Source: an uncultured Ruminococcus sp.
GTDB lineage: Bacteria; Bacillota; Clostridia; Oscillospirales; Ruminococcaceae
Length of the DNA: 64,000 nt
Direction of reading: 5' to 3'
NCBI GenBank assembly: GCA_964644275.1
Contig: CAZXVI010000006.1
Span: 8,423 to 72,422, forward strand
Every line of letters starts with the position of its first letter. Position 1 is the first letter of the stretch. Shown one piece after another: positions 5,768 through 25,340 of this stretch. Position numbers and translations under genes: made by a program. The notes under the pieces were generated by a model that worked only from the letters and a program-made list of their open reading frames with translations, was not told the DNA's origin and ran no database searches.

Positions 5768-5836
5768 GATTAGTATAAAATCCCATTGCGGAGGGAAAAC
5801 GCATTGCCAATCCCAAACTTACTTGGAGGGAACGAT

Positions 5837-6727
5837 ATGAAGAACACAATTTTTACAGGTGCCGGCGTAGCTATTATCACACCGTTCAATGAGGATGGTT
5901 CCATTAATTTTGATGGTCTTGGCACCAACATTGACTACCAGATTGCAAACGGCACCGATGCAATTATTATCTGCGGCACAACCGGTGAGGCTTCTACCAT
6001 GACGGAGGAGGAACACCTGGAGTGCATCCGTTATGCGGTGGAGCGTACCAATCACAGAATTCCGGTCATTGCCGGAACAGGAAGCAATGACACCCGAACG
6101 GCCATTGCACTGTCCGCTGAAGCTGAAAAGCTGGGTGCGGATGGCTTGCTGCTGGTAACGCCCTACTACAACAAGACTACCCAAGCCGGTCTCATCCGGC
6201 ATTTCACCGCCATTGCTGACAGCGTGAATATTCCGATCATTCTGTACAATATCCCCGGACGTACCGGCATGGCAATTTCCGTGGATGCTCTGAAGGTACT
6301 GGCGCAGCACAGGAACATCGCTGCAATTAAGGAAGCAAGCGGCAATATCAGCTACACTGCACAGGTTGCTGCTGCAGTTGGTGATCAGCTGGATATCTAC
6401 AGCGGCAACGATGACATGATTGTTCCGGTAATGGCACTGGGCGCAAAGGGCGTGATTTCCGTTCTGTCCAATATCCTGCCCAGGGAAACCCATGACATCT
6501 GCCAATACTGTCTGGACAACAATTTCCAGGCTGCCACTGCAATGCAGCTGCGCTATCTGGAAGTGATTAACGATCTTTTCTGTGAGGTTAATCCGATTCC
6601 GATTAAGGCTGCCATGAACATGATGGGAATGGCTGCCGGTTCCCTGCGCATGCCTTTGGTGGAAATGGGCGAGGCCAATGCCGCTAAGCTCAGAGATGCG
6701 ATGCAGCGTGCCGGCATCCTTGCATAA
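5837..6727 (+). CDS. dapA: 4-hydroxy-tetrahydrodipicolinate synthase
   Basis: MKNTIFTGAGVAIITPF..GTTGEASTMT..PYYNK..AIKEASG is DapA-type throughout. Start is ATG 5837 after GGAGGG. Confidence 0.95.
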   Translation: MKNTIFTGAGVAIITPFNEDGSINFDGLGTNIDYQIANGTDAIIICGTTGEASTMTEEEHLECIRYAVERTNHRIPVIAGTGSNDTRTAIALSAEAEKLGADGLLLVTPYYNKTTQAGLIRHFTAIADSVNIPIILYNIPGRTGMAISVDALKVLAQHRNIAAIKEASGNISYTAQVAAAVGDQLDIYSGNDDMIVPVMALGAKGVISVLSNILPRETHDICQYCLDNNFQAATAMQLRYLEVINDLFCEVNPIPIKAAMNMMGMAAGSLRMPLVEMGEANAAKLRDAMQRAGILA

Positions 6728-6749
6728 TCTGACAAGGAGGTACAAAGCA

Positions 6750-7514
6750 TTGGATCAGATAACGATTCTCATAACCGGCGCAAACGGAAAAATGGGGCAT
6801 GCGGTAGCTGCCGCCATTGCCGGCAGAGAGGACTGTACTGTTTCAGCCGGTGTGGATCTGAACACAAAGCAGTATGGGAATTTCCCCGTTTATGAAACTT
6901 TTTCCGCAGTACAGGATAAACCCGATGTGCTCATTGACTTTTCCAATCCGGCACTGCTGGACGGCATTCTGGATTACTGTCTGGTGAATGGCGTTCCCTG
7001 CGTACTTGCAACAACGGGCTATAGTGAGGAGCAGATCGCAAAAATCAAAAAAGCGTCTGCCTCCATTCCGGTTTTCTTCTCCTTCAATATGTCCCTGGGC
7101 ATCAATCTGCTGGTGCAGCTGGCCAAAAAGGCAGTTTCCATTCTGGGCGGACAGTTCGATATTGAGATTGTCGAAAAGCATCACAATCAGAAGCTTGACG
7201 CTCCCAGCGGTACAGCTCTGATGCTGGCAGACGCCATGAATGAGGAGCTGGAGGGCAAGTACCATTATGTGTACGACCGTCATTCCAAACGTCAGAAGCG
7301 TGAAAAGCTGGAAATCGGCATGCACGCCATCCGCGGCGGTACCATTGTGGGCGAACACGATATTATTTTCGCCGGTCATGATGAGGTCATTACGCTCTCC
7401 CATTCTGCGGCTTCCAAGGAAGTGTTTGCAGTGGGTGCCGTGAATGCGGCAGTCTTCCTTGCAAAGCAGGAAGCGGGGCTGTATGATATGTCACAGCTGA
7501 TAACACAGGGGTAA
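6750..7514 (+). CDS. dapB: 4-hydroxy-tetrahydrodipicolinate reductase
   Basis: ITILITGANGKMGHAV is the NAD(P)-binding motif and EKHHNQKLDAPSGTA the DapB signature. I propose a TTG start at 6750, 9 nt after AAGGAGG. The track's ATG at 6678 would overlap dapA. Confidence 0.9.
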   Translation: MDQITILITGANGKMGHAVAAAIAGREDCTVSAGVDLNTKQYGNFPVYETFSAVQDKPDVLIDFSNPALLDGILDYCLVNGVPCVLATTGYSEEQIAKIKKASASIPVFFSFNMSLGINLLVQLAKKAVSILGGQFDIEIVEKHHNQKLDAPSGTALMLADAMNEELEGKYHYVYDRHSKRQKREKLEIGMHAIRGGTIVGEHDIIFAGHDEVITLSHSAASKEVFAVGAVNAAVFLAKQEAGLYDMSQLITQG

Positions 7515-9667: not shown

Positions 9668-10873
9668 TTATTGTTCGGGTACATCAATCATGTGCCCCAT
9701 TTTTTCCTGCTTGGTGCGCAAGTAGAAGAGGTTCTCTGCTTTTGGTGGGATCTCAATGGGTTCTCTGGCAGCAATGGTAATGCCATAATCGGACAGGTCG
9801 GTGATTTTCTCCGGGTTATTGGTCATAATCCGCAGCTGTACCGCTCCCAGATCCTTGAGAATCTGGGCACCCTCACTGTAATCCCGCAGATCGGGAGCAA
9901 AGCCAAGCTCTACATTGGCTTCCACTGTATCCCTGCCGTGCTCCTGAAGATCGTAGGCCTTGATTTTATTCAGCAGGCCGATTCCTCTGCCCTCCTGTCG
10001 GAGATAGACCAGAATGCCTCTCCCCTCCTTTGCAATGCGTTTCATGGCAGAGTCCAGCTGTTCGCCGCAGTCGCAGCGGCTGGAACCGAACACATCCCCT
10101 GTCAGACATTCAGAATGCACTCTGCAAAGCACCGGCGCACCGTCTGCCACATTTCCCATGACCAGAGCAACATGCTCCCTTCCGGTAATCCGGTTGTGGT
10201 AGCCGTAAATCTGGAAATTCCCATATTTGGTGGGGAGATGGGCATGGGATACACGTTCCATGAAGGTATCATGCATCCGCCGGTATTTCTGAAGCTCCTT
10301 GATCGTGATGAACACCAGATCGTGACGCTTGGCAAATGCTGTGAGTTCTGTCAGTCGCATCATGGTGCCATCGTCCGCCATAATTTCACAGCAAAGGCCG
10401 CATGGCTCCAGTCCTGCAAGGCGCATGAGATCGACAGTGGCCTCCGTATGACCGTTGCGTTCCAATACGCCGCCGGGTCTGGCTTCCAGAGGGAACATAT
10501 GACCGGGACGACGGAAATCCGCCGGTGCCGCATCCCTCTCCACACACATCCGGGCAGTCAGTCCCCGCTCCTCTGCAGAAATTCCTGTTGTTGTCCGCAC
10601 ATGATCAATGGACTCTGTGAAGGCTGTACAATGGTTATCGGTGTTATTGGTCACCATCTGCCGCAGTCCCAGCTTCCGGATATAGCTGCTGTCCATGGGC
10701 ATGCAGATTAATCCTTTGGCATGGCATGCCATAAAGTTGACATTTTCCGTTGTGGCAAACTGCGCCGCACAGATCAGATCGCCCTCATTCTCCCGGTCGG
10801 GATCGTCCGTGACCAGAATCAGCTTTCCCTCACGAAGTGCCTGCAGTGCCTGGGGTATTGTATGAAATTCCAT
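9668..10873 (-). CDS. ribBA: Bifunctional 3,4-dihydroxy-2-butanone-4-phosphate synthase / GTP cyclohydrolase II
   Basis: [13 protein letters not shown] is the DHBP synthase motif. [22 protein letters not shown] is the GCHII zinc site. Start is ATG 10873 ([10 protein letters not shown]). Confidence 0.95.
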
Positions 10874-10890
10874 CTTTCGCTCCTTGTTTC

Positions 10891-11532
10891 TCAGGCAAAG
10901 CCGTGCTCGGCAAGGAATGCAGCTGTTATACCGCTGCCGGATGTTTCCCTGCTGCAAAGCTTCTCCACGTATTTTCCAATGATATCACACTCCAGATTCA
11001 CCGGATCCCCCGGTTTCTTCCGGAGCAATGTGGTCTGGGCACCGGTATGGGGAATGACAGAGACTGCAAAATCTGTTTCGCTGATCTTAGCCACTGTCAG
11101 GCTGATGCCGTCAATGGCAACCGAGCCTTTTTCCACAATATAATGCAGCACCTGGGGTGAAGCCGCAATGGTCACCCAGACAGCATTATCATCCCTTCTC
11201 ATGGCAGAAACCGTCCCTGTACCATCAATATGTCCGGAAACAATGTGACCGCCGAACCTTCCATCCGCCGCCATGGCACGTTCCAGATTGACAGGACTGC
11301 CTGGAATCAGACTGCCGAGATTGGTGCGCTGCATAGTTTCCGGCATGACATCCGCCGAGAAGCAGCTGCCGTCATAACGGCATACGGTCAGGCAGGTACC
11401 GTTTACGGCAATGCTGTCACCCACATGAATGTCTTCCAGCACGGTATGAGCATTGACGGTCAGTATGCAGGATCCGGAACCCCGGCGGATATCCCGGATA
11501 ATTCCGATTTCTTCTACGATTCCTGTAAACAT
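10891..11532 (-). CDS. ribE: Riboflavin synthase
   Basis: [10 protein letters not shown], plus an internal repeat with [10 protein letters not shown], typical of the riboflavin synthase alpha chain. Confidence 0.95.
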
Positions 11533-12623
11533 TTGCTCGCCTCCATATCATATTCCAGGAGGATATCATCTCCGAAACGGCGGATGCTCGGACTGCTCAG
11601 CTGGTAGGCCTCCTCCGGGCTTGATACACCAAGACCTCCGACGGCAGTTTTGGCAGAAATGCCGCCGAAAATTTTCGGTGCGATATAGATCTGCACATGC
11701 TGCACAATGCCGCTTCGCAGGGCTGCCTCATGGAGAGCGGATCCTCCCTCCAGAAGAATGCTGTCCAGCTCCATATCGCCAATAATACGGATGAGAGCAC
11801 GCAGATCCACATGGCCGTCTTCGGAGGGAAGCTGCAGAACATGAACGCCGAAGGCTTCCAGCTTTTCACATTTTCTCCGATCCATACGGCAGGCAGCAAC
11901 ATAGGTGGGAATTTCATGGGCTGTCAGCACCAGCTTGCAGTCAAGAGGAATCTGCAGATTGGTATCGCAGACAAAGCGCACAGGATTTCTGCCGTTTTCA
12001 ATCCGGCAGCTGAGCGTGGGGTCGTCCGCAAGAACAGTGCCGATGCCCACCATAATTGCTGCCACACGGTTCCTGGTTTCATGCACATGACGGCGTGACG
12101 CCTCATTGGTAATCCACTGAGACAGTCCGGCTCTTGTTGCCGTCTTGCCGTCCGCCGTCATGGCAGTTTTCAGAATACAGTAGGGCATCCGGGTACGGAT
12201 GTAATGGAAGAAGATATGGTTGATGGCATCGCAATCCTCTTTGCAGAAATGCCGGATGACTTCTATTCCTGCCGCTTCCAGCTGAGCAAGACCTTTGCCG
12301 GCAACCAATGGGTTGGGATCATCGGAGCCTACAAATACCCTGGCAATGCCGCTCCCGATCAGCGCCTCGGTGCAGGGCGGATTCTTGCCATAATGACAGC
12401 ATGGCTCCAGAGTCACATACATAGTTGCTCCTCTGGGATCCTCCCTGCAGTTTGCCAATGCGTTGCGCTCTGCATGGGGCATGCCGTAGCATTCATGGTA
12501 ACCCTCACCGATGATTCTGCCATTTTTGACGATGACAGCGCCCACAAGGGGATTGGGATTCACTCTGCCGATTCCCCGCTGTGCCAGAACAACAGCCCGC
12601 TGCATGTACTGCACATCCGTCAT
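11514..12623 (-). CDS. ribD: Bifunctional diaminohydroxyphosphoribosylaminopyrimidine deaminase / 5-amino-6-(5-phosphoribosylamino)uracil reductase
   Basis: HAERNAL..TLEPCCHYGKNPPC is the CDA zinc site; a reductase domain follows. The start is most likely ATG 12623 (or 12629) after GTGAGGAA. The track start at 12665 lies in the riboswitch terminator. Confidence 0.9.
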   Translation of the reverse strand: MTDVQYMQRAVVLAQRGIGRVNPNPLVGAVIVKNGRIIGEGYHECYGMPHAERNALANCREDPRGATMYVTLEPCCHYGKNPPCTEALIGSGIARVFVGSDDPNPLVAGKGLAQLEAAGIEVIRHFCKEDCDAINHIFFHYIRTRMPYCILKTAMTADGKTATRAGLSQWITNEASRRHVHETRNRVAAIMVGIGTVLADDPTLSCRIENGRNPVRFVCDTNLQIPLDCKLVLTAHEIPTYVAACRMDRRKCEKLEAFGVHVLQLPSEDGHVDLRALIRIIGDMELDSILLEGGSALHEAALRSGIVQHVQIYIAPKIFGGISAKTAVGGLGVSSPEEAYQLSSPSIRRFGDDILLEYDMEASKCLQES

Positions 12624-12644
12624 ATACATTTCCTCACTTTCATG

Positions 12645-12676
12645 AAAAAATACCCCGAATTTCACTTCGGGGTATC
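12645..12676 (-). terminator. Intrinsic terminator of the FMN riboswitch expression platform
   Basis: The minus strand reads ATACCCCGAA-GTGAAA-TTCGGGGTAT followed by TTTTTT, immediately upstream of the ribD RBS. Confidence 0.8.
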
Positions 12677-12690
12677 ATAGGAACATCATC

Positions 12691-12814
12691 ATTCTTCTCC
12701 CATCCGGACTATACCGTCGGTTTCGGATTCTCACCGAATCAACCCCTGTAAGGCTCACGGACTTAGGCATACACCATCACCGTCGGTTATGAGTTACACA
12801 TACCCCGAAGAATA
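12691..12814 (-). promoter_or_regulatory. FMN riboswitch (RFN element) aptamer
   Basis: The minus strand contains TTCTTCGGGG..ACCGACGGTGA..AGTCCGTGAGCC..GATTCGGTGAGAATCCGAAACCGACGGTATAGTCCGGATGGGAGAAGAA. This matches the conserved RFN core and P1 closure, upstream of a rib operon. Confidence 0.9.
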
Positions 12815-12830
12815 CAATTACACTTTTTAT

Positions 12831-13517: not shown

Positions 13518-14381
13518 TTACTGTCTGCCTTTATTGTTATTGTTTTTTTTCATTTTTCTGCCTGTCATATCCGACAGGGCATAGGATTGCTGGTATACAC
13601 GCCGGTAAGCTGTCGGTGTCATTCCGGCATGGCGTTTGAACTGCCGCATAAAATAAACATCCGACTCAAAACCGCTCCTCTGGGATATCTCTGTAATTGC
13701 CAGATCCGTCCGTTCCAGCAGCTGCTTGGAACAGGCAATCCTGCTCTCTATGACATCCTGTGTACAGGATGTACCGAAAGCCATAAGATATATTTTGTGA
13801 AAATAAGGACGGCTGATACATAGGCGGTTGCAGATATCCTGAATATACCAGCTTTTCTCCGGGTGCTGATATATTTCACTGCGCAGCTGGACTAATTTCT
13901 CATAGTGCGGAATATGCACCGCTCTCTCCGAATGCTGGATGTTCTGCAAAAGCAGGCAAAGCATCAATTCCAGCGAGGTACGGGCAATTTCCTGTTCCAG
14001 TGCTGATGCTGCATCCTTGACAGATGCCAGGATTTTAAAAATTTCCATTATCGCAAGGGGCTGCATTGCCAGATGTTCCATGCGGTAAGTCAGTCCGTTA
14101 TGCTGGAGCTGCTGCTGATAACTGTTTGTCACACGCAGATGAAGCCAGCTGAAAACTGCAGTGTCCTGCAGTACAATTTGTAAAATACCATTTTCAAAGG
14201 GGTAAAGCGCAAAAGTAAAGGGCTGGAAATGATAGGACTGTTGATTCACCATCACAACAGCCGGGCTGTGAAACAGCAGCAATACAAGTTCTTGTCCTGT
14301 TTCTTTTTCAAACAGCTGCAATGATCCACCCTGATTGCGCTGACCGCAGTCAATAAGTACTGCCCGCTCGGATTGTACCAT
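13518..14381 (-). CDS. AraC family transcriptional regulator
   Basis: A C-terminal dual HTH is present (IQDICNRLCISRPYFHKIYLMAFGTS..ITEISQRSGFESDVYFMRQFKRHAGMTPTAYRR). Confidence 0.85.
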   Translation of the reverse strand: MVQSERAVLIDCGQRNQGGSLQLFEKETGQELVLLLFHSPAVVMVNQQSYHFQPFTFALYPFENGILQIVLQDTAVFSWLHLRVTNSYQQQLQHNGLTYRMEHLAMQPLAIMEIFKILASVKDAASALEQEIARTSLELMLCLLLQNIQHSERAVHIPHYEKLVQLRSEIYQHPEKSWYIQDICNRLCISRPYFHKIYLMAFGTSCTQDVIESRIACSKQLLERTDLAITEISQRSGFESDVYFMRQFKRHAGMTPTAYRRVYQQSYALSDMTGRKMKKNNNNKGRQ

Positions 14382-14672: not shown

Positions 14673-15509
14673 ATGCGATCGCTCATCCAGCAATACCATC
14701 CCATCACTGCTACGCCATTCCGGAATGATGAAACCTACTGTGAGCTTACACCATGCAGCGCTTTACAACCCTATATCCGATGCTTCTGGGGCACAAGGCA
14801 TCCTGTTGCAAGCGGACTGACACCCATTGCAGATGAGCTTGTCATCCCCGATACTTGCATGGACATCATCTTTGACATCGACTACACACGGAACAGCTGC
14901 AGCGGGTTCTTCTGCGCACTGGATGAGCATTCCTACCACTCCCATGGCACAAACAGCGGAACTCTGACAGCCACCTTTGCCATTCGCTTCTATGCATGGA
15001 CGGCAATTCTCTTTGCTGAGCAGGATTTCCAGGAAAGCAGGAACCAAAGCTTCTGCTTGGATACATTCTATCATGAGCTCAGGTCCGATCTGGAGCCGCT
15101 GCTGTTCGATATGCCGTCCCTCCGTGAAAAAGCAGAAATTGCAGAGAAATTTCTGCTGAACAGGCTCCGGCTGAACCGCATCAATCCTGATCTTATGAAT
15201 GCCATCCACCATATGCTCGATACCAGCGGACGGGCAAGGATCTCCGATCTCTGCGGCTATACTGCTGTATCGGAAAAACAGCTGGAGCGTATGTTCCGAT
15301 ATAATATGGGGGTTTCACCGAAGACCTTTTCTTCCCTGCTCCGCTATCAGCTTCTGTGGCAGGATATGGTATTCCGTTCTGATTTCAATGTGCTGGATGC
15401 TGTGGAACAATACGGCTACACCGACCAGTCCCATCTGCTGCATGACTTTAAAAAACGGCACCTGATGACACCAAAACAGGCGGTGGAATTTGCAATGCAA
15501 AGAAGATAA
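14673..15509 (+). CDS. AraC-type HTH transcriptional regulator with a non-cupin N-terminal domain
   Basis: The C-terminal segment ISDLCGYTAVSEKQLERMFRYNMGVSPKTFSSLLRYQ..YGYTDQSHLLHDFKKRHLMTPKQ is AraC-type. The N-terminal domain (LQPYIRCFWGT..VIPDTCMDIIF) is of unknown function. Confidence 0.8.
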   Translation: MRSLIQQYHPITATPFRNDETYCELTPCSALQPYIRCFWGTRHPVASGLTPIADELVIPDTCMDIIFDIDYTRNSCSGFFCALDEHSYHSHGTNSGTLTATFAIRFYAWTAILFAEQDFQESRNQSFCLDTFYHELRSDLEPLLFDMPSLREKAEIAEKFLLNRLRLNRINPDLMNAIHHMLDTSGRARISDLCGYTAVSEKQLERMFRYNMGVSPKTFSSLLRYQLLWQDMVFRSDFNVLDAVEQYGYTDQSHLLHDFKKRHLMTPKQAVEFAMQRR

Positions 15510-15582
15510 TGTCGTTTTTTTACAAGACAGATTTTATTCCTTGTGTTATACTGTTTTCAGTACTACAATTCGGGAGGTTACC

Positions 15583-16500
15583 ATGAATACATTTGAAAAA
15601 GCAAGAAATTTTATCTATCGCAATGCGCGTCCCCTTGACCTGGCACGCTGGCAGTTTCATTTTGAAAATGGCAGTATTGAAGGTGTTCTGCAATCACTGG
15701 CTGCTTATCAGAATGCGGACGGGGGGTTCGGGCATGCTCTGGAGGCCGATTGCTGGAATCCCCACTCCTCGCCCATCCAGACATGGGCAGCAACAGAAGT
15801 TCTGCACGAAACCGGATTTACCGATGCCGCACATCCCATCATTACAGGAATTCTGCACTATCTGGAAAGCGGCGCGGATTTTGATACACCCCATAATCAA
15901 TGGATGAACACTGTTCCGGACAACAATAACTTTCCACATGCGATCTGGTGGGAGTACAATGGAAATGGCGAGTTCCGTTACAACCCCACAGCAGCACTGG
16001 CAGGATTTGCTGTACGATTTGCAGACAGGCACTCCGCCCTTTATGAAACAGGATGTACTATTGCCAGGCAGGCTGCGGACTGGTTCATGGACCAGGAGCC
16101 ATTTGAAGAAATGCATGTGACAAACTGTTTTGTACGGCTGTATGAATACCTGTGTGAAGCCAAGGTAAAGCTCACAGATATGGCGCTGTTCAAGGAAAAA
16201 CTGATACAGCAGGTGAACTACAATATCTGCAGAGCGCCTGAAAAATGGGGAACGGAGTACGTTACCAAGCCATCCGAGCTGATCCGTTCCCGTGACGATA
16301 TGTTCTATGGGGATAATGCAGAACTTGCAGAGTTGGAATGTGATTTCATTATCCAGAGCCAGCTTCCCGACGGCGCATATCCTGTTACATGGGAGTGGTA
16401 TACGGATGACAAGGAATTCGAGGTAGCGGCAAACTGGTGGAAAGGAAATTTAGTGATTCGCAATATGCGATATCTGAAGGGGTTTGGAAAATTGCAATGA
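15583..16500 (+). CDS. Hypothetical protein, possibly alpha/alpha-toroid-like
   Basis: Start is ATG 15583 after GGGAGG. LAAYQNADGGFGHALE and QSQLPDGAYP resemble the Q-x-x-DGG(F/W) repeats of prenyltransferase/terpene-cyclase-type toroids. No specific family recognised. Confidence 0.7.
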   Translation: MNTFEKARNFIYRNARPLDLARWQFHFENGSIEGVLQSLAAYQNADGGFGHALEADCWNPHSSPIQTWAATEVLHETGFTDAAHPIITGILHYLESGADFDTPHNQWMNTVPDNNNFPHAIWWEYNGNGEFRYNPTAALAGFAVRFADRHSALYETGCTIARQAADWFMDQEPFEEMHVTNCFVRLYEYLCEAKVKLTDMALFKEKLIQQVNYNICRAPEKWGTEYVTKPSELIRSRDDMFYGDNAELAELECDFIIQSQLPDGAYPVTWEWYTDDKEFEVAANWWKGNLVIRNMRYLKGFGKLQ

Positions 16501-17180: not shown

Positions 17181-18023
17181 ATGAACAGCTGGGCAGAAGG
17201 CATCCAGAATGCCATTGAATACATTGAAGATCATCTGACGGAGGATCTGGAGATTGCGGATATCGCCGCAAAGGCATATGTTTCACCCTTTCACTTTCAG
17301 CGGATTTTCAGTGTGCTGTGCGGTTTTACGGTGGGGGAATACATCCGCTGCCGCAGACTTACTCTTGCAGCGCAGGAATTGTCCGGGGATTGTGCAAAGG
17401 TCATTGACATTGCAGTAAAATACGGCTATGATTCGCCGGACAGCTTTGCAAGGGCGTTCACGAGATTTCATGGCATTTCTCCCTCGGCTGCAAAGGAAAA
17501 AGGGGCAAACCTTAAGTCGTTTGCTCCCTTGCGAATCAAATTAACATTGGAGGGCGGTACGATGATGGAGTACAAAATTGTGGAAAAGGCAGCATTTACA
17601 ATCATGGGAAGGTCGAGACAATTCTGCGTAGATACTTCCTATACAGAAATTCCGAAATTCTGGGAAGAGCATATGCAGAGCGGTGAAGCTGAAGTCGTCT
17701 GCGGCATGTATGGCGTCTGCATGGACGGTGACGGCAAGAATTTTGAATACCTCATTGCAGATAATTATCTGCCGTGGAATGAGGTGCCCAAGGGGTATGT
17801 AACGAGGGTTATTCCTGCCGGAACATGGGCAGTATTCCCCTGCAAAGGCGCACTTCCCAAGGCATTGCAGGATGTGAATACAAAAATCTGGAGCGAATGG
17901 CTGCCTGGCTGCAAGGAATACAAGCTTGCCGGGAACTATAACCTTGAAGTGTATCTGACTCCGCCGCAGGAAAGTCCTGAGGAGACCTACAGCGAAATCT
18001 GGGTGCCGGTGGAGCGGATCTGA
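17181..18023 (+). CDS. AraC family regulator with C-terminal GyrI-like effector-binding domain
   Basis: N-terminal HTHs are present (IADIAAKAYVSPFHFQRIFSVLCGFTVGEYIRCRRL..YGYDSPDSFARAFTRFHGISP). The C-terminal GyrI-like part reads EYKIVEKAAFTIMG..EIWVPV. Confidence 0.9.
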   Translation: MNSWAEGIQNAIEYIEDHLTEDLEIADIAAKAYVSPFHFQRIFSVLCGFTVGEYIRCRRLTLAAQELSGDCAKVIDIAVKYGYDSPDSFARAFTRFHGISPSAAKEKGANLKSFAPLRIKLTLEGGTMMEYKIVEKAAFTIMGRSRQFCVDTSYTEIPKFWEEHMQSGEAEVVCGMYGVCMDGDGKNFEYLIADNYLPWNEVPKGYVTRVIPAGTWAVFPCKGALPKALQDVNTKIWSEWLPGCKEYKLAGNYNLEVYLTPPQESPEETYSEIWVPVERI

Positions 18024-18173: not shown

Positions 18174-18202
18174 TTGACGAAACACGGAAAATGTGATATA
18201 CT
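18174..18202 (+). promoter_or_regulatory. SigmaA-type promoter of the B12-riboswitch operon
   Basis: TTGACG (18174-18179), a 17-nt spacer, then TATACT (18197-18202) with TGa extended -10. Confidence 0.7.
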
Positions 18203-18289
18203 ATTGCTTGTAATGCTAATTCTCCAAGCTGCAATGGATATACGCCGGCGCAGCCCAGGTATGCTTTGGTTGACCTGGGGTTAAGGGAT

Positions 18290-18440
18290 TAGCAGCAATT
18301 GAATAGTGTTTCGCAGTTCGGTTCCGTTCATCGGATGAGAGGGAAGTTCGGTGCAAATCCGTCGCAACCATCATTACCGTAATTGGAGCAGACATTCTCC
18401 TTAAGTCGGGATACTCACCGGACAATGCGAAGGTACCGGC
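18290..18440 (+). promoter_or_regulatory. Cobalamin riboswitch, compact form
   Basis: The core reads AGAGGGAAGTTCGGTGCAAATCCG..ACCGTAATTGGAGC with a B12-box-like AAGTCGGGATACTCACC. I do not see the GCCACTG..GGGAAGGC peripheral element of long AdoCbl-type members. Boundaries are approximate. Confidence 0.75.
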
Positions 18441-18540
18441 AGGCGTTTCGTTTGCCGCAGCATTTTTGGATATGAAAAGTGCAGCCGTTTGATGTTTCAG
18501 GGAAAGGTGTATTCGTTTGCCCGGAGCAGATAAATCGCTG

Positions 18541-18581
18541 CGCTTTTTTGTTGTTCATACAGCAAAAAAGCGTTTCTTTTT
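18541..18581 (+). terminator. Intrinsic terminator of the cobalamin riboswitch expression platform
   Basis: A 10-bp stem pairs CGCTTTTTTG with CAAAAAAGCG around a 12-nt loop, followed by TTTCTTTTT, just upstream of the RBS GGGAGAGG. Confidence 0.8.
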
Positions 18582-18594
18582 GGGAGAGGTAGTT

Positions 18595-18810
18595 ATGGTG
18601 AAGGAAAAGCTGACCAAATCGGATTGTCTTGTCCTCTTAAAGGACAAGCATGCTTCCCTGTTGGAAAAGGGAGAGAACCGGTATCCGAAGCGCTCGGATT
18701 TTTCCGAACGTGAGGTGGTGGCGATCAAAGCATTCCTCGGTCCATGGCCAAGAGCACTGGAAGCTGCCGGAGTCAAACCGCCCGGATCCCGTATAAAGAA
18801 ACGGCATTGA
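18595..18810 (+). CDS. Small protein resembling a single 'homing-endonuclease-associated repeat' (HTH-like) unit
   Basis: 71 aa: MVKEKLTKSDCLVLLKDKHASLLEKGENRYPKRSDFSEREVVAIKAFLGPWPRALEAAGVKP.. The pattern P-x-R-x-D-F ... (F/L)G-x-W-x-x-A-L-E-A-A-G-(L/V) matches that repeat family. Start is ATG 18595 after the terminator and RBS. Confidence 0.6.
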   Translation: MVKEKLTKSDCLVLLKDKHASLLEKGENRYPKRSDFSEREVVAIKAFLGPWPRALEAAGVKPPGSRIKKRH

Positions 18811-18875
18811 ACCCCATTCGTCAATCCATCCTGCACAGCAGGTGTGATAAATCCAATTAAAGAGAGGTTATTTCC

Positions 18876-19814
18876 ATGAAACAATTATTTGCATCCCTGC
18901 TTTCTGTACTGGCAGTGACAGCTGCCTGCACCGGAGCCGTTTTTGCCGAAGAAACCGATTCTGTGAATGTATATGTCACAATTTCTGATGCGGAAGGCAC
19001 TCTGGCACTTGCTGCCGAAAGCATCGCCGTTTCCGACATAGACGGTGACGGTGCCCTTACCATCAATGATGCACTGTACCTTGCCCATGAAGCATGCTAT
19101 GACGGCGGTGCCGCTGCCGGCTATGCTTCTGCTTACGGCGATTATGGTCTGAGTCTGAACAAGCTTTGGGGTACAGAAAACGGCGGCAGCTATGGCTATT
19201 ATGTGAACAACGCTTCTGCATGGTCCCTTGCAGATCCCGTTGCGGACGGCGATTATATCAATGCCTTTGTGTATACGGATCTGAATGCATGGTCGGATAC
19301 CTACTGCTATTTTGACGCCAACTCTGTATCGGCTGAAGCCGGTGAAGAAGTAACACTTACCCTACTGGCAGCCGGATATGATGCCGACTGGAATCCTGCT
19401 GTACTTCCTGTGGAGGATGCCATCATTACAATTGACGGAGAAGCCTCCGACTGGCGGACTGATGCTGAGGGCAAGGTAACATTGTCCTTTAAAAACGGCG
19501 GAAACTTTGTGATCAGTGCAGTTTCTGACACGCAGATTCTTGTGCCGCCTGTTTGCAAGGCTGCTGTCACAGGGACAGAGGAAGAAACCGCTGCGCCAAC
19601 GGAAGCCCTCGAAGCTACAGAAGCAGAGCCAACAGAAACCACTGCTTCAGAAGAACCGACGGAGGCAGATACGCAAGCAGCTGCTTCCGATGCAAAGGGC
19701 ACTGTGACGTCCCCGGATACCGGAAATTCCTCCGGTCTCTGTGCCGCAGGTGCAGGGGCATTGGCCTGCCTCGGCATCGTAACAGCTGCACGTAAGCGCA
19801 ATCATGAGAAATAA
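18876..19814 (+). CDS. Sortase-anchored cell-wall protein with a DUF4430-like N-terminal module
   Basis: A signal peptide is present (MKQLFASLLSVLAVTAACTGAVFA). The C-terminal sorting signal is SPDTG, then a hydrophobic stretch, then RKRNHEK. There is a Ca-loop-like DIDGDGALTINDAL. WGTENGGSYGYYVNN..VADGDYINAFVY is reminiscent of the DUF4430 C-terminal pattern. A T/E/A-rich stalk follows. Confidence 0.8.
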   Translation: MKQLFASLLSVLAVTAACTGAVFAEETDSVNVYVTISDAEGTLALAAESIAVSDIDGDGALTINDALYLAHEACYDGGAAAGYASAYGDYGLSLNKLWGTENGGSYGYYVNNASAWSLADPVADGDYINAFVYTDLNAWSDTYCYFDANSVSAEAGEEVTLTLLAAGYDADWNPAVLPVEDAIITIDGEASDWRTDAEGKVTLSFKNGGNFVISAVSDTQILVPPVCKAAVTGTEEETAAPTEALEATEAEPTETTASEEPTEADTQAAASDAKGTVTSPDTGNSSGLCAAGAGALACLGIVTAARKRNHEK

Positions 19815-21654
19815 GTTCTTTGCCGGATTGCTCTGTACTCTGCTTTTGCTGAGTATGGGCTTTTCACCGGTCAGAACCTATGCGGAAACCGTCGATGAGG
19901 TGCAAAGCCTTATCGACGGTATTGTTGACTTTCAGCTGAACAGCAGTGGTGCAGATTCCGTTCAGGACTGGATCAATAGTACCCTGACAGCAAATGCCGG
20001 CAGTACATCGGAATGGTATATTCTGGCACTGAGCCAGAACGGAACCAACTATGACTTTTCATCCTATGAGGCTGCTTTGACTTCTTATCTCAGCGGAACA
20101 ACCGTAGCAAGCGCAACCTCCCGTCAGAAATACGCTCTTGTTCTTATTGCAGTGGGAAGCAGCAATACCTATATTTCCGAAGCGCTGCATTCCTCCATTG
20201 GCATGCAGGGAATTATGAGCTGGGTATATGGTCTGCATCTGCTGAATAACGGTTATACCAGTGACAGCTATAACGCTGGGGAAATTGTCAGCCAGCTGCT
20301 TTCCATGCAGCTGAGTGACGGCGGCTGGGCACTGTCCGGCAGTGTATCGGATGTGGATGTGACAGCCATGACGGTGCAGGCATTGGCACCGTACTATTCC
20401 GCAAACAAAGCTGCCATCGACCGTGCTGTATCCCTCCTTTCACAGAAACAGCTGGACAGCGGCGATTACGCAAGCTATGGCGTTGCAAATCCGGAAAGCA
20501 CGGCACAGGTCATTACGGCACTTTCCGCCCTTGGAATTGACTGCCTGTCGGATTCACGCTTTATCAAGAACGGAAACACCTTGCTGGATGGCATTGCAAA
20601 ATACCAGCTGGCTGACGGCAGCATCAGCCATACAGAAGGCGGTGCCTTCAATCAGATGGCAACTGTGCAGGTGTTTTATGGGCTGACGGCCTATATCAGG
20701 CAGCAAAGAGGCGGGAGTTCACTGTATCTCCTGGATAACCGCAGTCCGGAGGCGCTTTCCGGCACAGCTCCTGCACCAACGGAAGCGCCTGCTGTACAGA
20801 CGAATACACCTGCAGTTTCTCCGTCAACGGAGGGACAGACAGTCCGTCCGGATGCACCTGCTCCGACAGAAACAGAATGCACTGCTGCGGAAACAATGCA
20901 GACAAGTACATTCATCGAAAGCACCGCAGGAACCGCAGGAACCAACAGGGAAACAACCATAACTGCAATAAACAGCAGCACAGCAGTATCCCCAACAACA
21001 AGCACGGAATCGACAGAAACAGAAGTCATCACGGAATCAGAACCCAATACGGAAGAGAATGGGAGCAGGAATTCCGGGGGCTACAAGCCATGGGCATGCC
21101 TGATAGTGATCGGTATTGGCGGTACAGTCTGTCTGATCTTGTTCCTTGTCAAAAAACGCCATCCCAAGAACTTTATTGCTGTTGTGCTGCTCACCGGACT
21201 GGGAATCGTCTTCATCTGCCTGACTAACTTCCAGAGTGCAGAGGATTACTATCATGGAGAAAACAGCGAGAAAGCAAACAGCATCGGCACGGTAACCATG
21301 ACCATCCGCTGCGACACAATTACAGACAAAGGCGATGGGGATTATATTCCGAAGGATGGTGTCATACTGGATGTGACAGCATTTTCCATTGCGGATGGAG
21401 ACACGGTATTTACAATACTGACAGAAGCGGCGCAGGCCTATGGCATTCAGTTGGAATACAGCGGCAGCCCGAAGCTGGCATATGTTTCAGGGATCAACTA
21501 CATCTATGAATTTGAGTTCGGTGATTTGTCCGGATGGGTCTATCACGTCAACGGTACTGCACCGTCCGTGGGCTGCGGTGAGTACCTGCTAACGGACGGC
21601 GATGTTATCGAATGGCACTATACCTGTGATTTAGGCAATGATGTAAATAAGTAG
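19804..21654 (+). CDS. Membrane-tethered protein: signal peptide, alpha/alpha-toroid repeats, TM hairpin, DUF4430 (transcobalamin beta-domain-like) domain
   Basis: Toroid-type repeats are MQLSDGGWAL, KQLDSGDYASYG and YQLADGSISH. A T/P/E-rich linker follows. Two hydrophobic helices (WACLIVIGIGGTVCLILFLV and FIAVVLLTGLGIVFICL) flank KKRHPKN. The C-terminal part DGDTVFTILTEAAQAYGIQLEYSGS..YIYEFEFGDLSGWVYHVNG..LTDGDVIEWHYT is classic DUF4430. Confidence 0.85.
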   Translation: MRNKFFAGLLCTLLLLSMGFSPVRTYAETVDEVQSLIDGIVDFQLNSSGADSVQDWINSTLTANAGSTSEWYILALSQNGTNYDFSSYEAALTSYLSGTTVASATSRQKYALVLIAVGSSNTYISEALHSSIGMQGIMSWVYGLHLLNNGYTSDSYNAGEIVSQLLSMQLSDGGWALSGSVSDVDVTAMTVQALAPYYSANKAAIDRAVSLLSQKQLDSGDYASYGVANPESTAQVITALSALGIDCLSDSRFIKNGNTLLDGIAKYQLADGSISHTEGGAFNQMATVQVFYGLTAYIRQQRGGSSLYLLDNRSPEALSGTAPAPTEAPAVQTNTPAVSPSTEGQTVRPDAPAPTETECTAAETMQTSTFIESTAGTAGTNRETTITAINSSTAVSPTTSTESTETEVITESEPNTEENGSRNSGGYKPWACLIVIGIGGTVCLILFLVKKRHPKNFIAVVLLTGLGIVFICLTNFQSAEDYYHGENSEKANSIGTVTMTIRCDTITDKGDGDYIPKDGVILDVTAFSIADGDTVFTILTEAAQAYGIQLEYSGSPKLAYVSGINYIYEFEFGDLSGWVYHVNGTAPSVGCGEYLLTDGDVIEWHYTCDLGNDVNK

Positions 21655-21672
21655 AAAAACGGAGGTGCGGCA

Positions 21673-22551
21673 ATGAAGTCCTTTGCAGAGTATCATCCCA
21701 TGGCAATCACAATTTATTTTCTGACAACTGCCGGAATTGCTATGTTCTGCTCAAATCCTGTCATCACTGCAATTTCGCTGTTCGGCGCTCTGCTGCTCTT
21801 TGTCATCAGAAACGGACGCAGGCACGCAGCATCCCATCTGTATTTTCTTGGACTGTTTCTGGTGATGGCACTCATCAATCCCCTTGTGTCCCACAATGGC
21901 GCAACGGTACTCTTTGTCATGAATCATCATCCGGTCACAATGGAGGCGCTGCTGTACGGTATCGGAGCTTCCGCCGGTATTCTTGCCGTCCTCTACTGGT
22001 TCCGCAGCTTTTCACAGATTATGACAAGGGATAAGCTACTGTATGTTTTCGGGGCATTATCTCCGAAGCTGTCGTTGGTGCTTTCCATGGCCATCCGCTA
22101 TGTCTCCCTCTTCAGCCGACAGACAAAAAAGGTAATCCAATCCCAGAAAGCGCTTGGTCTTTACAAGGAAGACAACATCATGGACAATCTCAGAGGCAGC
22201 CTCCGTGTGTTTTCCGTCATGCTTACCTGGGCTTTGGAAAACGGCATTATCACGGCGGACAGCATGGCAGCAAGAGGTTATGGCATCGGAAAGCGAACCC
22301 ATTTTTCCATCTTCCGTTTCCGGAAATCGGACGGGCTGCTGCTCTGTCTGAGCCTGCTGCTCTTTGCAGTTACCTGCACGGGGATGGGCTGCGGTGCGCT
22401 GGAGTTCCACTATTACCCCACCATTACAGCGTTAAGGTGTTCCCCCCTGGCGGCTGTCAGTTATGGATCTTACGGACTGCTGGTGCTTCTGCCGGCAGTC
22501 ATTGAAACGGAGGAGGCAATCAAATGGAACTGCTGTCTGTCGAAAATCTGA
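21673..22551 (+). CDS. ecfT: ECF transporter transmembrane (T) component, CbiQ/EcfT family
   Basis: A polytopic membrane protein with the coupling-helix region ..SMAARGYG.. and CbiQ-like organisation. GGAGG RBS. Confidence 0.85.
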   Translation: MKSFAEYHPMAITIYFLTTAGIAMFCSNPVITAISLFGALLLFVIRNGRRHAASHLYFLGLFLVMALINPLVSHNGATVLFVMNHHPVTMEALLYGIGASAGILAVLYWFRSFSQIMTRDKLLYVFGALSPKLSLVLSMAIRYVSLFSRQTKKVIQSQKALGLYKEDNIMDNLRGSLRVFSVMLTWALENGIITADSMAARGYGIGKRTHFSIFRFRKSDGLLLCLSLLLFAVTCTGMGCGALEFHYYPTITALRCSPLAAVSYGSYGLLVLLPAVIETEEAIKWNCCLSKI

Positions 22552-24158
22552 GCTTTACCTATCCCCTCTGTACAGAACCGGCAGTCAGGCAGGTTTCCTT
22601 CCGGATACACCGGGGAGAGCTGATTACTGTCTGCGGCGCAACGGGCAGCGGAAAATCCACGCTTCTGCGGCTGCTGAAGCGTGAGCTGACACCCCTGGGA
22701 ACATTGTCGGGAACCATCCGTTTCCGGGGAAAACCTCTTTCTTCCCTTTCCGAAAAGGAGGCTGCCGCAAAAATCGGCTTTGTCATGCAGAAACCGGAGC
22801 AGCAGATTGTTACGGACAGAGTCTGGCACGAGCTTGCTTTCGGACTGGAAAATCTACAGATTCCGCAGGAGAGCATTGCACAGCGTATTGCTGAAATGGC
22901 AAGCTATTTCGGCATCGAAAGCTGGTATGAAAAGGATGTATCCGAGCTTTCCGGCGGTCAGAAACAGCTGCTGAATCTGGCTGCGGTAATGGTGATGCAG
23001 CCGGATGTTCTGATTCTGGATGAACCTACTGCACAGCTGGACCCCATTGCGGCATCGGATTTTATCCGGACGCTGAAACAGCTGAACAACGATTTTGCTC
23101 TGACGATCATTGTTGTGGAGCATCGGCTGGAGGAGGTCATTCCTCTCTGCGACCGGCTGATGGTAATGGAGCAGGGACAGCTTCTCCACTTTGATACGCC
23201 CCGGACAGTTATCGCCAGGCTCCACGACAAGCCGGAGCTGCTCTGTGCTATGCCGGCAGCGGCAAGGCTGTACAGCAGACTTTCACTGCATGGAGAATGT
23301 CCGCTGACAGTGCGTGAAGGCAGAGAATTTCTCGAAACCCATTTCCAGAACAGGGTACAAAGCCTGCCAGCAGCCGATCATCCCCATGCTCCCGGTGCTG
23401 CTCTGGAGTTCCGGAATGTTTTCTTCCGCTATGATCGGAGCCAGCCGGATGTGCTCCATGATTTGCAGCTGACGGTGTACGAACAGGAGATTTTCTGTAT
23501 TCTCGGCGGAAATGGCTCTGGGAAAACCACTGCCCTGGGCACTGCTGCCGGACTACTGAAGCCCTACAGCGGAACGGTCAGGGTCTTCGGGGAAAAAATC
23601 AGGGACTACAAAAATCAGTCCCTCTACCGGAACTGCCTTGCAGTCCTGCCCCAGGATGTGCAGACTGTCTTTCTGAAAAACACGGTCCGGGAGGAGCTTG
23701 CCGATATGGGGGACATGGACGAACATCTGCCCTTCAATATCCGGCATTTATATGATCAGCATCCCTATGATTTGTCCGGGGGGGAACAGCAGCTTGTAGC
23801 ACTTGCTAAAATTCTGGCATTGCGGCCAAAGCTTCTGCTGCTGGATGAGCCGACCAAGGGACTGGATGCCCATGCCAAGCTGCAGTTCACTCATATCATG
23901 AGGGAATTGCAGAAACAGGGTATGACCATCATTACCGTTACCCACGATGTGGAACTGGCAGCGCTCTGTGCGGACCGGTGTGCACTGTTCTTTCGGGGAA
24001 ATGTGGTGTCAACGGATATTCCTTCCCGTTTTTTTGCAGAGAACAGCTTTTATACAACTGCTATCAGCCGCATGACACGGGGCTTCTATACAGGCGCAGT
24101 TACCGTGGAAGATGCCGCTGTCCTTTGCGAGAGAAACGGATGGAAGGAGGAGCGGTAA
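22524..24158 (+). CDS. ECF transporter ATPase, fused duplicated A-A' component
   Basis: Two complete ABC cassettes are present: GATGSGKST / LSGGQKQLL / ILDEPTAQLD and GGNGSGKTT / LSGGEQQLV / LLDEPTKGLD. Confidence 0.9.
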   Translation: MELLSVENLSFTYPLCTEPAVRQVSFRIHRGELITVCGATGSGKSTLLRLLKRELTPLGTLSGTIRFRGKPLSSLSEKEAAAKIGFVMQKPEQQIVTDRVWHELAFGLENLQIPQESIAQRIAEMASYFGIESWYEKDVSELSGGQKQLLNLAAVMVMQPDVLILDEPTAQLDPIAASDFIRTLKQLNNDFALTIIVVEHRLEEVIPLCDRLMVMEQGQLLHFDTPRTVIARLHDKPELLCAMPAAARLYSRLSLHGECPLTVREGREFLETHFQNRVQSLPAADHPHAPGAALEFRNVFFRYDRSQPDVLHDLQLTVYEQEIFCILGGNGSGKTTALGTAAGLLKPYSGTVRVFGEKIRDYKNQSLYRNCLAVLPQDVQTVFLKNTVREELADMGDMDEHLPFNIRHLYDQHPYDLSGGEQQLVALAKILALRPKLLLLDEPTKGLDAHAKLQFTHIMRELQKQGMTIITVTHDVELAALCADRCALFFRGNVVSTDIPSRFFAENSFYTTAISRMTRGFYTGAVTVEDAAVLCERNGWKEER

Positions 24159-24844
24159 TGCTTTTTATCCAGAATAAACGGACAAGGCAAATTCTGAAAT
24201 GGAGTATTCCCCTGCTTCTGATTCCTGCCATCGTAGTGCTGGGGGCACTGGTTTTTCACGAGAAGCGTTATTTGTTCATTTCCTTTTCTGTTGCGGTCCT
24301 TGCTGTCATTCTGTTTCTGGCAGGCATTGAACACAAACAGGTCGGCACAAGGCGCATGGTCATTGTATCCGTCATGACGGCACTGTGCATTGCAGGACGG
24401 TTCATTCCTTTTTTTAAACCAATCACAGCGCTGACTGTCATCACATCTATTTATCTTGGCAGTGAAGCAGGGTTTCTGACAGGTGCCATGGCGGCGGTAC
24501 TGTCCAATTTCTACTTCGGACAGGGACCGTGGACACCCTTTCAGATGCTGGCATGGGGCATGATTGGCTGGATAGCCGGATTTCTTGCCGGACCGCTACA
24601 GCGATGCAGGGCCTTTCTGCTGGCATACGGCATACTGTCCGGCATAGCCTATTCGTTTATGATGGATGTGTGGACGGTGCTGTGGTATAATGACCACTTT
24701 GATTTGGCACTGTATCTGGCGGCGTTGGGCACAGCCATTCCCTATACTGTGATGTATGCAGTTTCCAACTTTCTCTTCTTGTGGTGGATGGCTAAGCCAT
24801 TCGGTGAAAAACTGGGACGGATAAAGCTAAAATACGGAGTCTGA
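24158..24844 (+). CDS. ECF transporter substrate-specific (S) component, candidate corrinoid-specific
   Basis: About 228 aa with roughly 6 hydrophobic helices. The ATG overlaps the ATPase stop (TAATG). Position and size fit an S component. The substrate is inferred only from riboswitch context. Confidence 0.7.
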   Translation: MLFIQNKRTRQILKWSIPLLLIPAIVVLGALVFHEKRYLFISFSVAVLAVILFLAGIEHKQVGTRRMVIVSVMTALCIAGRFIPFFKPITALTVITSIYLGSEAGFLTGAMAAVLSNFYFGQGPWTPFQMLAWGMIGWIAGFLAGPLQRCRAFLLAYGILSGIAYSFMMDVWTVLWYNDHFDLALYLAALGTAIPYTVMYAVSNFLFLWWMAKPFGEKLGRIKLKYGV

Positions 24845-24869
24845 TACTAATTCTCCAGGAGGTAGCATC

Positions 24870-25145
24870 ATGCAGAACAATGAAACTAAATCACGGAATT
24901 ACGCCTATTTTTCCCATGCAGAATGTGAATTTTTCCCCTGCCATGAACATGCGGACAGGAGAAACTTCAACTGTCTGTTCTGCTATTGTCCATTGTATCC
25001 GCTGGGGACACAGTGCGGCGGAGCGTTTGTCATTCTGCCAAACGGCACCAAGGACTGCAGCGCATGCCTTTTTCCCCACCTTCGTGAGAATTATGATGCT
25101 GTAATCGAAAGATACAGTGAAATCTGCAGCAAAATGTTCAGATGA
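24870..25145 (+). CDS. Cysteine-rich small domain (metal-binding) protein
   Basis: 91 aa with AECEFFPCHE..FNCLFCYCPLYP..CGG..DCSACLFPH, the 'cysteine-rich small domain' pattern often found near or fused to cobalamin-biosynthesis genes. AGGAGG RBS. Confidence 0.75.
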   Translation: MQNNETKSRNYAYFSHAECEFFPCHEHADRRNFNCLFCYCPLYPLGTQCGGAFVILPNGTKDCSACLFPHLRENYDAVIERYSEICSKMFR

Positions 25146-25201: not shown

Positions 25202-25240
25202 GAGGATTAGCAGCAAAATAATGGCAGTCAGGAACAGAGC

Positions 25241-25270
25241 AAAGCCGCTGGATGTGAATCCAGCGGCTTT
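25241..25270. terminator. Bidirectional hairpin terminator between the ECF operon and engB
   Basis: A 13-bp stem, AAAGCCGCTGGAT-GTGA-ATCCAGCGGCTTT, with T-containing tails on both strands. Confidence 0.6.
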
Positions 25271-25340
25271 GTATATTCCTTCTTCCTGTTCTATATCTGT
25301 AATCCGACGCTCTGCATGACGCCGCCATAAACGACCAGCT

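Follow-up and report, generated by a model that had tools for sequence, protein, structure and literature searches.

The 64-kb stretch of an uncultured Ruminococcus sp. contig analysed here, called the window, carries on its + strand seven co-directional genes, g1 to g7, and judged from their sequences these quite probably serve corrinoid uptake under B12 control in a gut or rumen bacterium of the Gram-positive Clostridia. This reading is well supported because the S component of the encoded energy-coupling factor (ECF) importer resembles CbrT, g3 matches transcobalamin, and the gene set is conserved together with a B12-type leader. The CbrT relation, the g3 match and the conserved leader also bear out an initial annotation of this DNA, which had proposed an operon repressed by B12 in which surface proteins are coupled to a corrinoid importer of the dedicated ECF kind. 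The genes are separated by 65, −11, 18, −28, −1 and 25 nt, in agreement with the tight or overlapping spacing described in that annotation, and with the starts chosen here all seven products (7/7) are the exact proteins of one 84,875-bp NCBI contig. The locus is an ordinary member of a common operon class that had already been predicted (Burroughs, Balaji, Iyer and Aravind 2007, PMC1796856, available passages).

The product of g3 (19804..21654, +) is, according to Pfam, its AlphaFold (AF2) model and Foldseek, a complete bacterial transcobalamin-like protein of 616 residues, modelled with a membrane hairpin inserted in the linker between its two domains. A signal peptide precedes an alpha/alpha toroid at residues 30-320 (19891-20763, +), which in the model is a helical domain of about residues 26-301 with a predicted local distance difference test (pLDDT) score above 90. 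There follow a disordered linker rich in proline and threonine (residues 327-424, 20782-21075, +), a transmembrane hairpin with a conserved KKR loop (residues 427-473, 21082-21222, +; modelled helices 427-448 and 454-473) and a DUF4430/SLBB beta domain (residues 490-610, 21271-21633, +; modelled as a beta-grasp of about residues 493-607). By sequence, residues 532-607 match Pfam DUF4430 (PF14478) with 62.3 bits (cut-off 23.8) and the toroid gives a squalene-cyclase-type Pfam match below threshold (24.1 vs 26.1). The model was built on 47 homologues and has a mean pLDDT of 78. A comparison of models by Foldseek, which had been suggested for both surface proteins of the operon, gave transcobalamin, intrinsic factor and haptocorrin at ranks 1-15 of the PDB matches of g3 (E = 3e-6 to 4e-5), in alignments of 603-634 columns covering both domains. 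After rank 15 the matches were terpene cyclases and prenyltransferases, which matched the toroid only. The beta domain of human transcobalamin alone (5no0) matched g3 with a target TM-score of 0.71. The description of g3 as a membrane-tethered toroid plus DUF4430 protein is thereby confirmed by the DUF4430 match, the modelled toroid and the two transmembrane helices.

Like the mammalian carriers transcobalamin, intrinsic factor and haptocorrin, g3 combines an alpha6/alpha6 toroid with a beta-grasp beta domain in the same order, but it differs from them in being anchored in the membrane by the two-helix hairpin of the interdomain linker, and the identity is about 9-12%. The TM-scores of the g3 model against these carriers are 0.36-0.49 (target-normalised) at a root-mean-square deviation of 11.5-17.6 Å, which reflects a different relative placement of the domains. 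Residues K451, R452 and F457 at the inter-helix loop are nearly invariant, and because of the KKR loop and the positive-inside rule both folded domains are expected to lie outside the cell.

Genes g4 to g6 are by homology a dedicated group-I ECF importer of the CbrTUV type, with cobalamin and cobinamide as probable substrates; the CbrTUV naming of that importer type is reportedly that of Rodionov et al. 2009. The transmembrane component g4 (21673..22551, +; EcfT or CbiQ family, CbrV-type) has six hydrophobic segments and a borderline match to PF02361 (CbiQ) of 25.1 bits at a cut-off of 25. A fused EcfA-A' double ATPase (CbrU-type) with two ABC_tran stretches is encoded by g5 (22524..24158, +), which scored 349.6 against TIGR04520 (cut-off 315) and 329.5 against TIGR04521, just under the cut-off of 330. 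The CbrT-like S component g6 (24158..24844, +; 228 residues, exact NCBI protein) starts from the ATG at 24158 behind a GGAGG motif and matches PF07155 with 32.9 (cut-off 26.7). Its sole sequence match in the PDB is a distant similarity to 6fnp_A, CbrT (E = 1.9e-6, 31 bits), spanning residues 65-227 in the numbering from 24155, which is to be lowered by 1 for the 24158 start. The N-terminal extension of g6 comprises about 60 residues with two extra hydrophobic helices. From these family matches and the CbrT relation, g4 to g6 are therefore taken as a dedicated ECF importer of the type predicted for cobalamin, and the EcfT, the fused EcfA-A' and the S component named in the initial annotation were all recovered.

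Chain A of 6FNP is CbrT, the S component of Lactobacillus delbrueckii ECF-CbrT, for which uptake of cobalamin and cobinamide was shown (PMC5997447), and a dedicated cobalamin ECF importer had been predicted by Rodionov et al. in 2009, as cited in the available part of that paper. The L. delbrueckii system (Santos et al. 2018) shares with the window operon a homologous S component, EcfT and two ATPase domains and the cobalamin/cobinamide class. Its ECF module is of the shared group-II kind and no extracellular partners were included in its study, whereas the operon in the window has a dedicated T component and a fused AA' ATPase, an S component extended by about 60 residues in two helices, and two co-transcribed surface proteins.

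B12 riboswitches often control cobalt transporters, and a cobalt or nickel ECF transporter of the CbiMNQO/NikMNQO type under B12 control, with the surface proteins as NikK/CbiK-like metal accessories, would likewise show the CbiQ-family match of the T component, the cbiO-model matches of the ATPase and the weak resemblance of the g2 C domain to DUF4198 seen in orthologues. No CbiM/NikM or CbiN component is present among the operon genes, however, the S component belongs to vitamin-type families (PF07155, PF12822) and matches CbrT, g3 is a complete transcobalamin-like protein by its model, and the DUF4198 matches are all below threshold (best E = 3e-4). Uptake of cobalt or nickel is rejected because CbiM and CbiN are missing and the S component is CbrT-like, and is regarded as extremely improbable.

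The leader of the operon supports corrinoid uptake in that it contains a cobalamin riboswitch aptamer (18302..18436, +), which the covariance-model search suggested in the initial annotation identified as Rfam RF00174 (clan CL00101) with 39.4 bits against a gathering score of 31.5 and E = 1.8e-6 for the whole 64-kb window. The alignment covers the full model (1-189), and since 10 nt stand in for a 59-nt model segment the aptamer is taken as a short form without the P6 extension, a form that would be expected to select for small upper ligands. A 9-bp hairpin with a terminator-like pattern, present in both the minimum free energy and the centroid folds, lies right after the aptamer (18437..18457, +) and is possibly part of the expression platform. 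The intrinsic terminator that had been placed at 18541-18581 was found by pattern search and RNA folding at 18540..18583 (+), where a 15-bp stem and loop (hairpin 18540-18573) are followed by the U-tract, TTTCTTTTT, which stops 12 nt before the g1 start codon. A possible pairing of GAAAAGUGC with GCGCUUUUU in the leader was spotted by eye. At low intracellular B12 the leader would let RNA polymerase pass the terminator at 18540-18583, and with B12 bound to it transcription would be ended before g1 by attenuation. The sigma-70-type promoter-like site that had been claimed at 18174..18202 (+) is present (TTGACG, 17 nt, TATACT and a TG extension; 10/12) and is the top-scoring promoter match of the region about 100 nt 5' of the aptamer. 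Because the count of such sites in the region equals chance, it is only its position that argues for it.

Relatives of g3 were found in at least 509 GTDB species-representative genomes, a lower bound since the scan used two subfamily-specific peptide patterns. The carriers are mostly rumen or gut Ruminococcus, Lachnospiraceae, Acutalibacteraceae and Oscillospiraceae, and cultured ones include Ruminococcus flavefaciens FD-1, Y1, MA2007, ND2009 and SAb67. Synteny was counted in 80 loci (numbered with L below) sampled from the 509 matching species genomes, and the S component was found in 76, the AA' ATPase in 74, and g2 and the T component in 73 each. The co-occurrence survey proposed by the initial annotation thus gave a five-gene core of g2, g3, T, AA' and S that recurs in about 90% of the loci, with g1 and g7 as optional additions. 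The operon genes lie on one strand in either of two orders, g2-g3-T-AA'-S or T-AA'-S-g2-g3, and the overlap of g2 and g3 is 11 nt in the window, 11 nt in L002 and 17 nt in L004. In three loci (L047, L059 and L066) the S component directly follows the g3 homologue and no T or AA' gene was detected nearby; these may be group-II-style variants using a shared ECF module.

Rfam RF00174 was detected at gathering score upstream of the operon in L002, L004, L006, L023, L057 and L073, and AdoCbl-II or AdoCbl matches just below threshold were obtained in R. flavefaciens Y1 and FD-1 and in Ruminococcus sp. XPD3002. Standard annotation would miss the leaders of the R. flavefaciens group because their scores are just under the Rfam gathering scores. 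Short sub-threshold leaders were observed at 6863-6936 in L012 (34.1 vs 36.5), 6786-6872 in L037 (30.8 vs 36.5) and 6823-6969 in L034 (40.3 vs 50). With an nhmmer profile seeded on the Rfam-called leaders, 62 of the 73 loci with enough upstream sequence showed a B12-type leader no more than 1.2 kb upstream of where the operon genes begin, and no profile match occurred elsewhere in the loci (about 1.1 Mb).

The second surface protein, g2 (18876..19814, +; 312 residues, described by AF2, profiles and sequence features), has a signal peptide at residues 1-24 and was modelled with a pLDDT of 81 as two domains, a disordered stalk and a terminal helix. The N domain (residues 30-133, 18963-19274, +) is beta-grasp-like with a DxDxDG loop and an invariant His71, and is followed by an Ig/transthyretin-like domain (residues 143-232, 19302-19571, +) and, 3' of this, by the stalk (residues 233-278, +). 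The C-terminal residues 279-312 (19710-19811, +) carry a sorting signal composed of SPDTGN, a transmembrane segment and the tail RKRNHEK, the hydrophobic segment being residues 286-306. Among 44 orthologues T282 and G283 are conserved to 90% or more, and because of this conservation the C-terminus is read as a variant LPXTG sortase signal. Gram_pos_anchor (Pfam) matched 19 of the 44 orthologues weakly and g2 of the window not at all. Of the proposed sortase anchoring of g2, the tripartite signal accordingly stands, but the motif is a variant one without a Pfam anchor match.

No match at all was obtained for g2 in Pfam or NCBIfam, and its sequence search of the PDB gave nothing meaningful; besides Gram_pos_anchor, the 44 orthologues weakly match only carboxypeptidase-regulatory, DUF4198 and Ig-type models. 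In the AF2 models the order beta-beta-alpha-hairpin-beta-beta is common to the N domain and the DUF4430 domain of g3, and the N domain fits the transcobalamin-like SLBB clade, which in the available passages of PMC1796856 is a beta-grasp with a hairpin after the helix. Alignment of the N domain with DUF4430 by hhalign showed no similarity with shallow alignments (Neff about 2). When the profiles were deepened to 370 and 121 domain sequences, 68-100 columns aligned collinearly with a probability of 29% and a score of 26.3, and a column-shuffled null scored 12.5 +/- 2.4 with a maximum of 19.6, so that 0/150 shuffles reached 26.3. On the grounds of the shared order of strands and helix and of a score above all shuffles, the N domain is taken as probably a distant relative of DUF4430 outside the Pfam family. 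The claim of two proteins with a DUF4430 or transcobalamin-type beta domain therefore holds for g3 at 62 bits, but for g2 it is reduced to remote profile similarity.

A number of results weigh against a corrinoid uptake system of this design. The riboswitch score in the window is modest, RNA folding of the leader showed the terminator and no clear antiterminator, and 11/73 loci were without a leader by the nhmmer profile. Among the genes examined in the 64-kb window no B12-dependent or B12-biosynthetic gene was seen. No sortase gene was found in the window either, where the only TLxTC motif is in a 346-residue open reading frame of an rRNA-methylase gene cluster, guessed from its position to be RlmN. 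The g2 protein has no Pfam DUF4430 match at E <= 0.01 and 0/44 orthologues match DUF4430 at E <= 1. The suggested Foldseek comparison failed for g2, as its whole model gave only Ig-like, antibody and intimin folds from the PDB and no transcobalamin-type match; this search is uninformative on the N domain because the C-terminal domain dominates. The literature searched holds no corrinoid-binding or transport experiment on this operon family, searches on Gram-positive transcobalamin-like binders found no experimental work, and a 2026 review (PMC13616437) describes Gram-positive extracellular cobamide capture as 'entirely uncharacterized'. Finally, the same parts list is present in the homologous Lactobacillus sakei operon lsa1836-1840, which was reported to take up heme and has been linked to heme content (bioRxiv 10.1101/864751).

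The L. sakei operon is the basis for an alternative in which heme or another non-corrin tetrapyrrole is imported and the transcobalamin-like proteins scavenge heme. As described, the single operon Lsa1836-1840 encodes an S component, a fused ATPase, a T component and two extracellular proteins, one like the alpha and the other like the beta part of transcobalamin, and docking placed heme between these two. Unlike in g3, the two parts are not joined in one chain; heme is named as the substrate, and the description includes no g2-type protein. In the window and in most orthologous loci riboswitches of the cobalamin clan are found, and such control fits feedback by the transported cofactor and not heme. 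Furthermore, the sole solved relative of the S component is the B12/cobinamide transporter CbrT and the best folds for g3 are B12 carriers. Heme import is hence held to be improbable, and corrinoid uptake remains preferred.

The role of g2 within a corrinoid importer was addressed by its relatives. A search with the g2 N domain of 1.84 billion representative proteins gave 973 clusters, many of whose members have two to four N-domain copies and lengths of up to 3,720 residues. The N domain is always accompanied by the C domain of g2 in one module, and fusions of this g2N-g2C module with toroid, DUF4430 or SLH domains are seen in the proteins P0268 (toroid, two modules, DUF4430), P0313 (two modules, toroid, DUF4430), P0276 (module, toroid, SLH), P0253 (two modules, DUF4430, SLH) and P0274. 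Another locus, L090, encodes a fusion of toroid and g2 module, with the DUF4430 domain on a protein of its own. An 845-residue protein, P0220, looks like a g2-g3 fusion in which the membrane anchor of g2 and the signal peptide of g3 are both kept inside the chain. It is probably no true fusion but the result of read-through or of a wrong gene call where the stop and start codons overlap.

The g2 module belongs to the B12 regulon independently of g3. This follows from L089, in which a 1,376-residue protein with two g2N-g2C modules and SLH repeats, without toroid or DUF4430, stands directly behind its own 111-bit cobalamin riboswitch beside a BtuFCD-like transporter, with no g3 present. The arrangement at 341-8095 of L089 is transporter (Peripla_BP_2, FecCD, ABC), riboswitch and then the 1,376-residue protein, of which about 700 residues match nothing. 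In L091 and L092 g2-type proteins with SLH or choline-binding anchors were found in the same operon position behind cobalamin riboswitches, and other members of the g2 family carry dockerins. Since the module occurs with SLH, choline-binding and dockerin anchors in addition to the sortase signal, surface display is what stays constant and the anchor is interchangeable. In L091 an SLH-anchored beta-propeller (PQQ_2-like, 4051-5919) is encoded first behind the cobalamin riboswitch, before the g2-type protein and the ECF genes, which by arrangement only recalls the beta-propeller of Bacteroides BtuG.

The most serious alternative concerns g2 only and accepts the corrinoid importer. In it g2 sits on the wall as a scaffold or spacer by which g3 is positioned or protected, or else it serves adhesion, so that no two-tier relay exists. 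Because g2 has no DUF4430 match and its whole-model Foldseek matches are Ig-like folds of adhesins and antibodies only, g2 may indeed be a scaffold and not a binder; the hhalign probability of only 29% and anchor modules swapped freely, as in generic surface proteins, point the same way. Against this stand the strand and helix order shared with the g3 DUF4430 domain, the profile score exceeding all 150 column shuffles, the SLH-anchored module protein in L089 with its own strong cobalamin riboswitch, a BtuFCD-like neighbour and no g3, and P0276, where the module is fused directly to the toroid at the place of the beta domain. A scaffold is considered rather unlikely on balance, and the chances that g2 itself binds corrinoid are judged to be even. 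A wider proposal, put forward tentatively, is that g2N-g2C is an unnamed corrinoid-binding module (a very divergent SLBB beta-grasp with the DxDxDG loop and the invariant His, plus an Ig-like domain) displayed by Clostridia, alone or in arrays of up to four N-domain copies and on sortase, SLH, choline-binding or dockerin anchors, as the outer tier of a Gram-positive cobamide relay, which would feed a membrane-split transcobalamin homologue and then ECF-CbrT or BtuFCD.

In the mechanism proposed for the corrinoid uptake system of the window, g2 would be attached to the wall by sortase, and its beta-grasp-like and Ig-like domains would constitute an outer tier for capture, for concentrating the ligand or as a scaffold for g3. 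The beta domain of g3 would be held at the membrane and the toroid carried on a disordered tether of about 100 residues, and the two domains would clamp the corrinoid as transcobalamin, intrinsic factor and haptocorrin do and then hand it over to the S component g6, uptake through g6 being powered by g4 and g5. A strict outside-to-inside relay from the wall tier via the membrane tier to the S component would be one form of this and is regarded as somewhat doubtful.

Operons of this type have a precedent in print. In the available passages of PMC1796856, transcobalamin-like SLBB proteins with signal peptides, Gram-positive anchors and toroid fusions were described in operons that also encode CbiO/CbiQ and another extracellular SLBB protein; their hosts are usually without B12 synthesis. 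Surface complexes scavenging B12 were predicted, and animals were proposed to have acquired transcobalamin from such bacteria. The window operon shares with these operons the anchored SLBB-toroid protein, the second extracellular protein, the CbiO/CbiQ-like genes and the predicted B12-scavenging role. The combination of surface proteins and importer had been presented as poorly described or undescribed, which did not hold, since the operon type and its function, and hence the central idea of the initial annotation, had been published as a prediction in 2007. That work was purely computational and predates the definitions of ECF transporters and CbrT, and its available passages do not describe the membrane hairpin, the g2N-g2C family, riboswitch statistics, g1 or g7. 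Within the literature covered, including those passages, the transcobalamin-like domains split by a hairpin, the g2N-g2C module as a distinct, widely repeated family that in some genomes has a riboswitch of its own, and anchor types exchanged freely were not encountered.

A further likeness, in logic only, is that to Bacteroides BtuG, BtuH and BtuJ, where surface binders from B12-riboswitch loci pass scarce cobamides to a transporter. The parts are unrelated in fold and anchoring. In Bacteroides a beta-propeller, an Ig-like domain and DUF4465 are carried by outer-membrane lipoproteins that feed the TonB-dependent BtuB, in contrast to the transcobalamin-like and g2 modules, the wall or membrane anchor and the ECF S component of the present operon. 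Pfam and Foldseek linked neither g2 nor g3 to the beta-propeller of BtuG, the C-terminal domain of BtuH or DUF4465, and the two systems are related by analogy only. Competition for cobamides shapes gut and rumen communities, and extracellular capture is understood only for Bacteroidota. The operon family offers concrete testable candidates in the membrane-split transcobalamin homologue and in an unnamed surface module that elsewhere has its own B12 riboswitch. If binding is true, it would define the B12 acquisition route of many fibre-degrading Clostridia, attach a named function to a family of domains with some 1,000 representative clusters and provide a test of the 2007 proposal that animal B12 carriers came from Gram-positive bacteria. 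If the proposed reading of the g2 module is true as well, the system would be a Gram-positive counterpart of the Bacteroides BtuG/H/J relay, and the relay would belong to the bacterial system proposed as the source of the animal B12 carriers.

The remaining operon genes, g1 and g7, are optional accessories. The first gene, g1 (18595..18810, +), encodes a cytoplasmic protein of 71 residues, an exact NCBI protein with one HNH_repeat-like unit, which scored 23 bits against PF18780 (HNH_repeat), below the cut-off of 26. This sub-threshold match was all that was obtained for what had been described as a small helix-turn-helix-repeat-like protein, and that description was not confirmed. The orthologue in L004 (6499-6750) carries PF18780. 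In both gene orders g1, present in 17-23 of the 80 loci, is the first gene after the leader in all but one locus (L069). HNH_repeat is known from homing endonucleases and is unexpected at the first position behind a B12 leader. A PDB sequence match of g1 to Prp17 (E = 0.007) was treated as chance.

The last gene, g7 (24870..25145, +), encodes a cytoplasmic protein of 91 residues that matches PF04071 with 90.7 bits (cut-off 27), in line with the Cys-rich small protein that had been claimed. It is found at the 3' end of the operon in 4/80 loci, in both gene orders. A role of PF04071 proteins as general B12-regulon genes was considered and gained no support; three standalone homologues in other genomes were without a B12 riboswitch, and no mention of PF04071 was found in the literature searched. 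Upstream of a standalone PF04071 gene on an unrelated metagenome contig (L088), a Clostridiales-1 RNA (94 bits) was found at 5613-5767 (−). Sequence searches of the PDB gave nothing meaningful for g7 and g1, and NCBIfam gave no name for g1, g2, g6 or g7.

Between the convergent g7 and engB lies a 15-bp GC-rich hairpin with a terminator-like pattern (25239..25272, no strand assigned), which is likely the end of the transcription unit. The flanks are chromosomal housekeeping genes, with an AraC/GyrI regulator and YjbR upstream and EngB, Lon, ClpXP and trigger factor downstream. Three AraC-family regulators are encoded within 5 kb upstream of the operon, at 13518-14381 (−), 14673-15509 (+) and 17181-18023 (+), and the one nearest the operon carries a GyrI-like/Cass2 effector domain. 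Intracellular SLBB-AraC fusions were noted by Burroughs et al. in the available passages of PMC1796856, and the three upstream AraC proteins have no DUF4430 match. About 2 kb upstream of the operon a cytoplasmic protein of 306 residues (15580-16500, +) has no Pfam or NCBIfam match and shows an insignificant likeness (E about 0.7) to squalene-cyclase-type toroid repeats.

Two further riboswitches were seen in the window. A flavin mononucleotide riboswitch (106 bits; 12688-12816, −) precedes an operon of ribD, riboflavin synthase (lumazine-binding) and ribBA, with genes at 11514-12665, 10891-11532 and 9668-10957 (−), an ordinary riboflavin biosynthesis regulon. A lysine riboswitch (100 bits; 4196-4368, +) lies upstream of aspartate-semialdehyde dehydrogenase and then dapB (6678-7514, +). 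The true start of the open reading frame listed from TTG 4302 is placed further downstream, because that frame overlaps the lysine aptamer.

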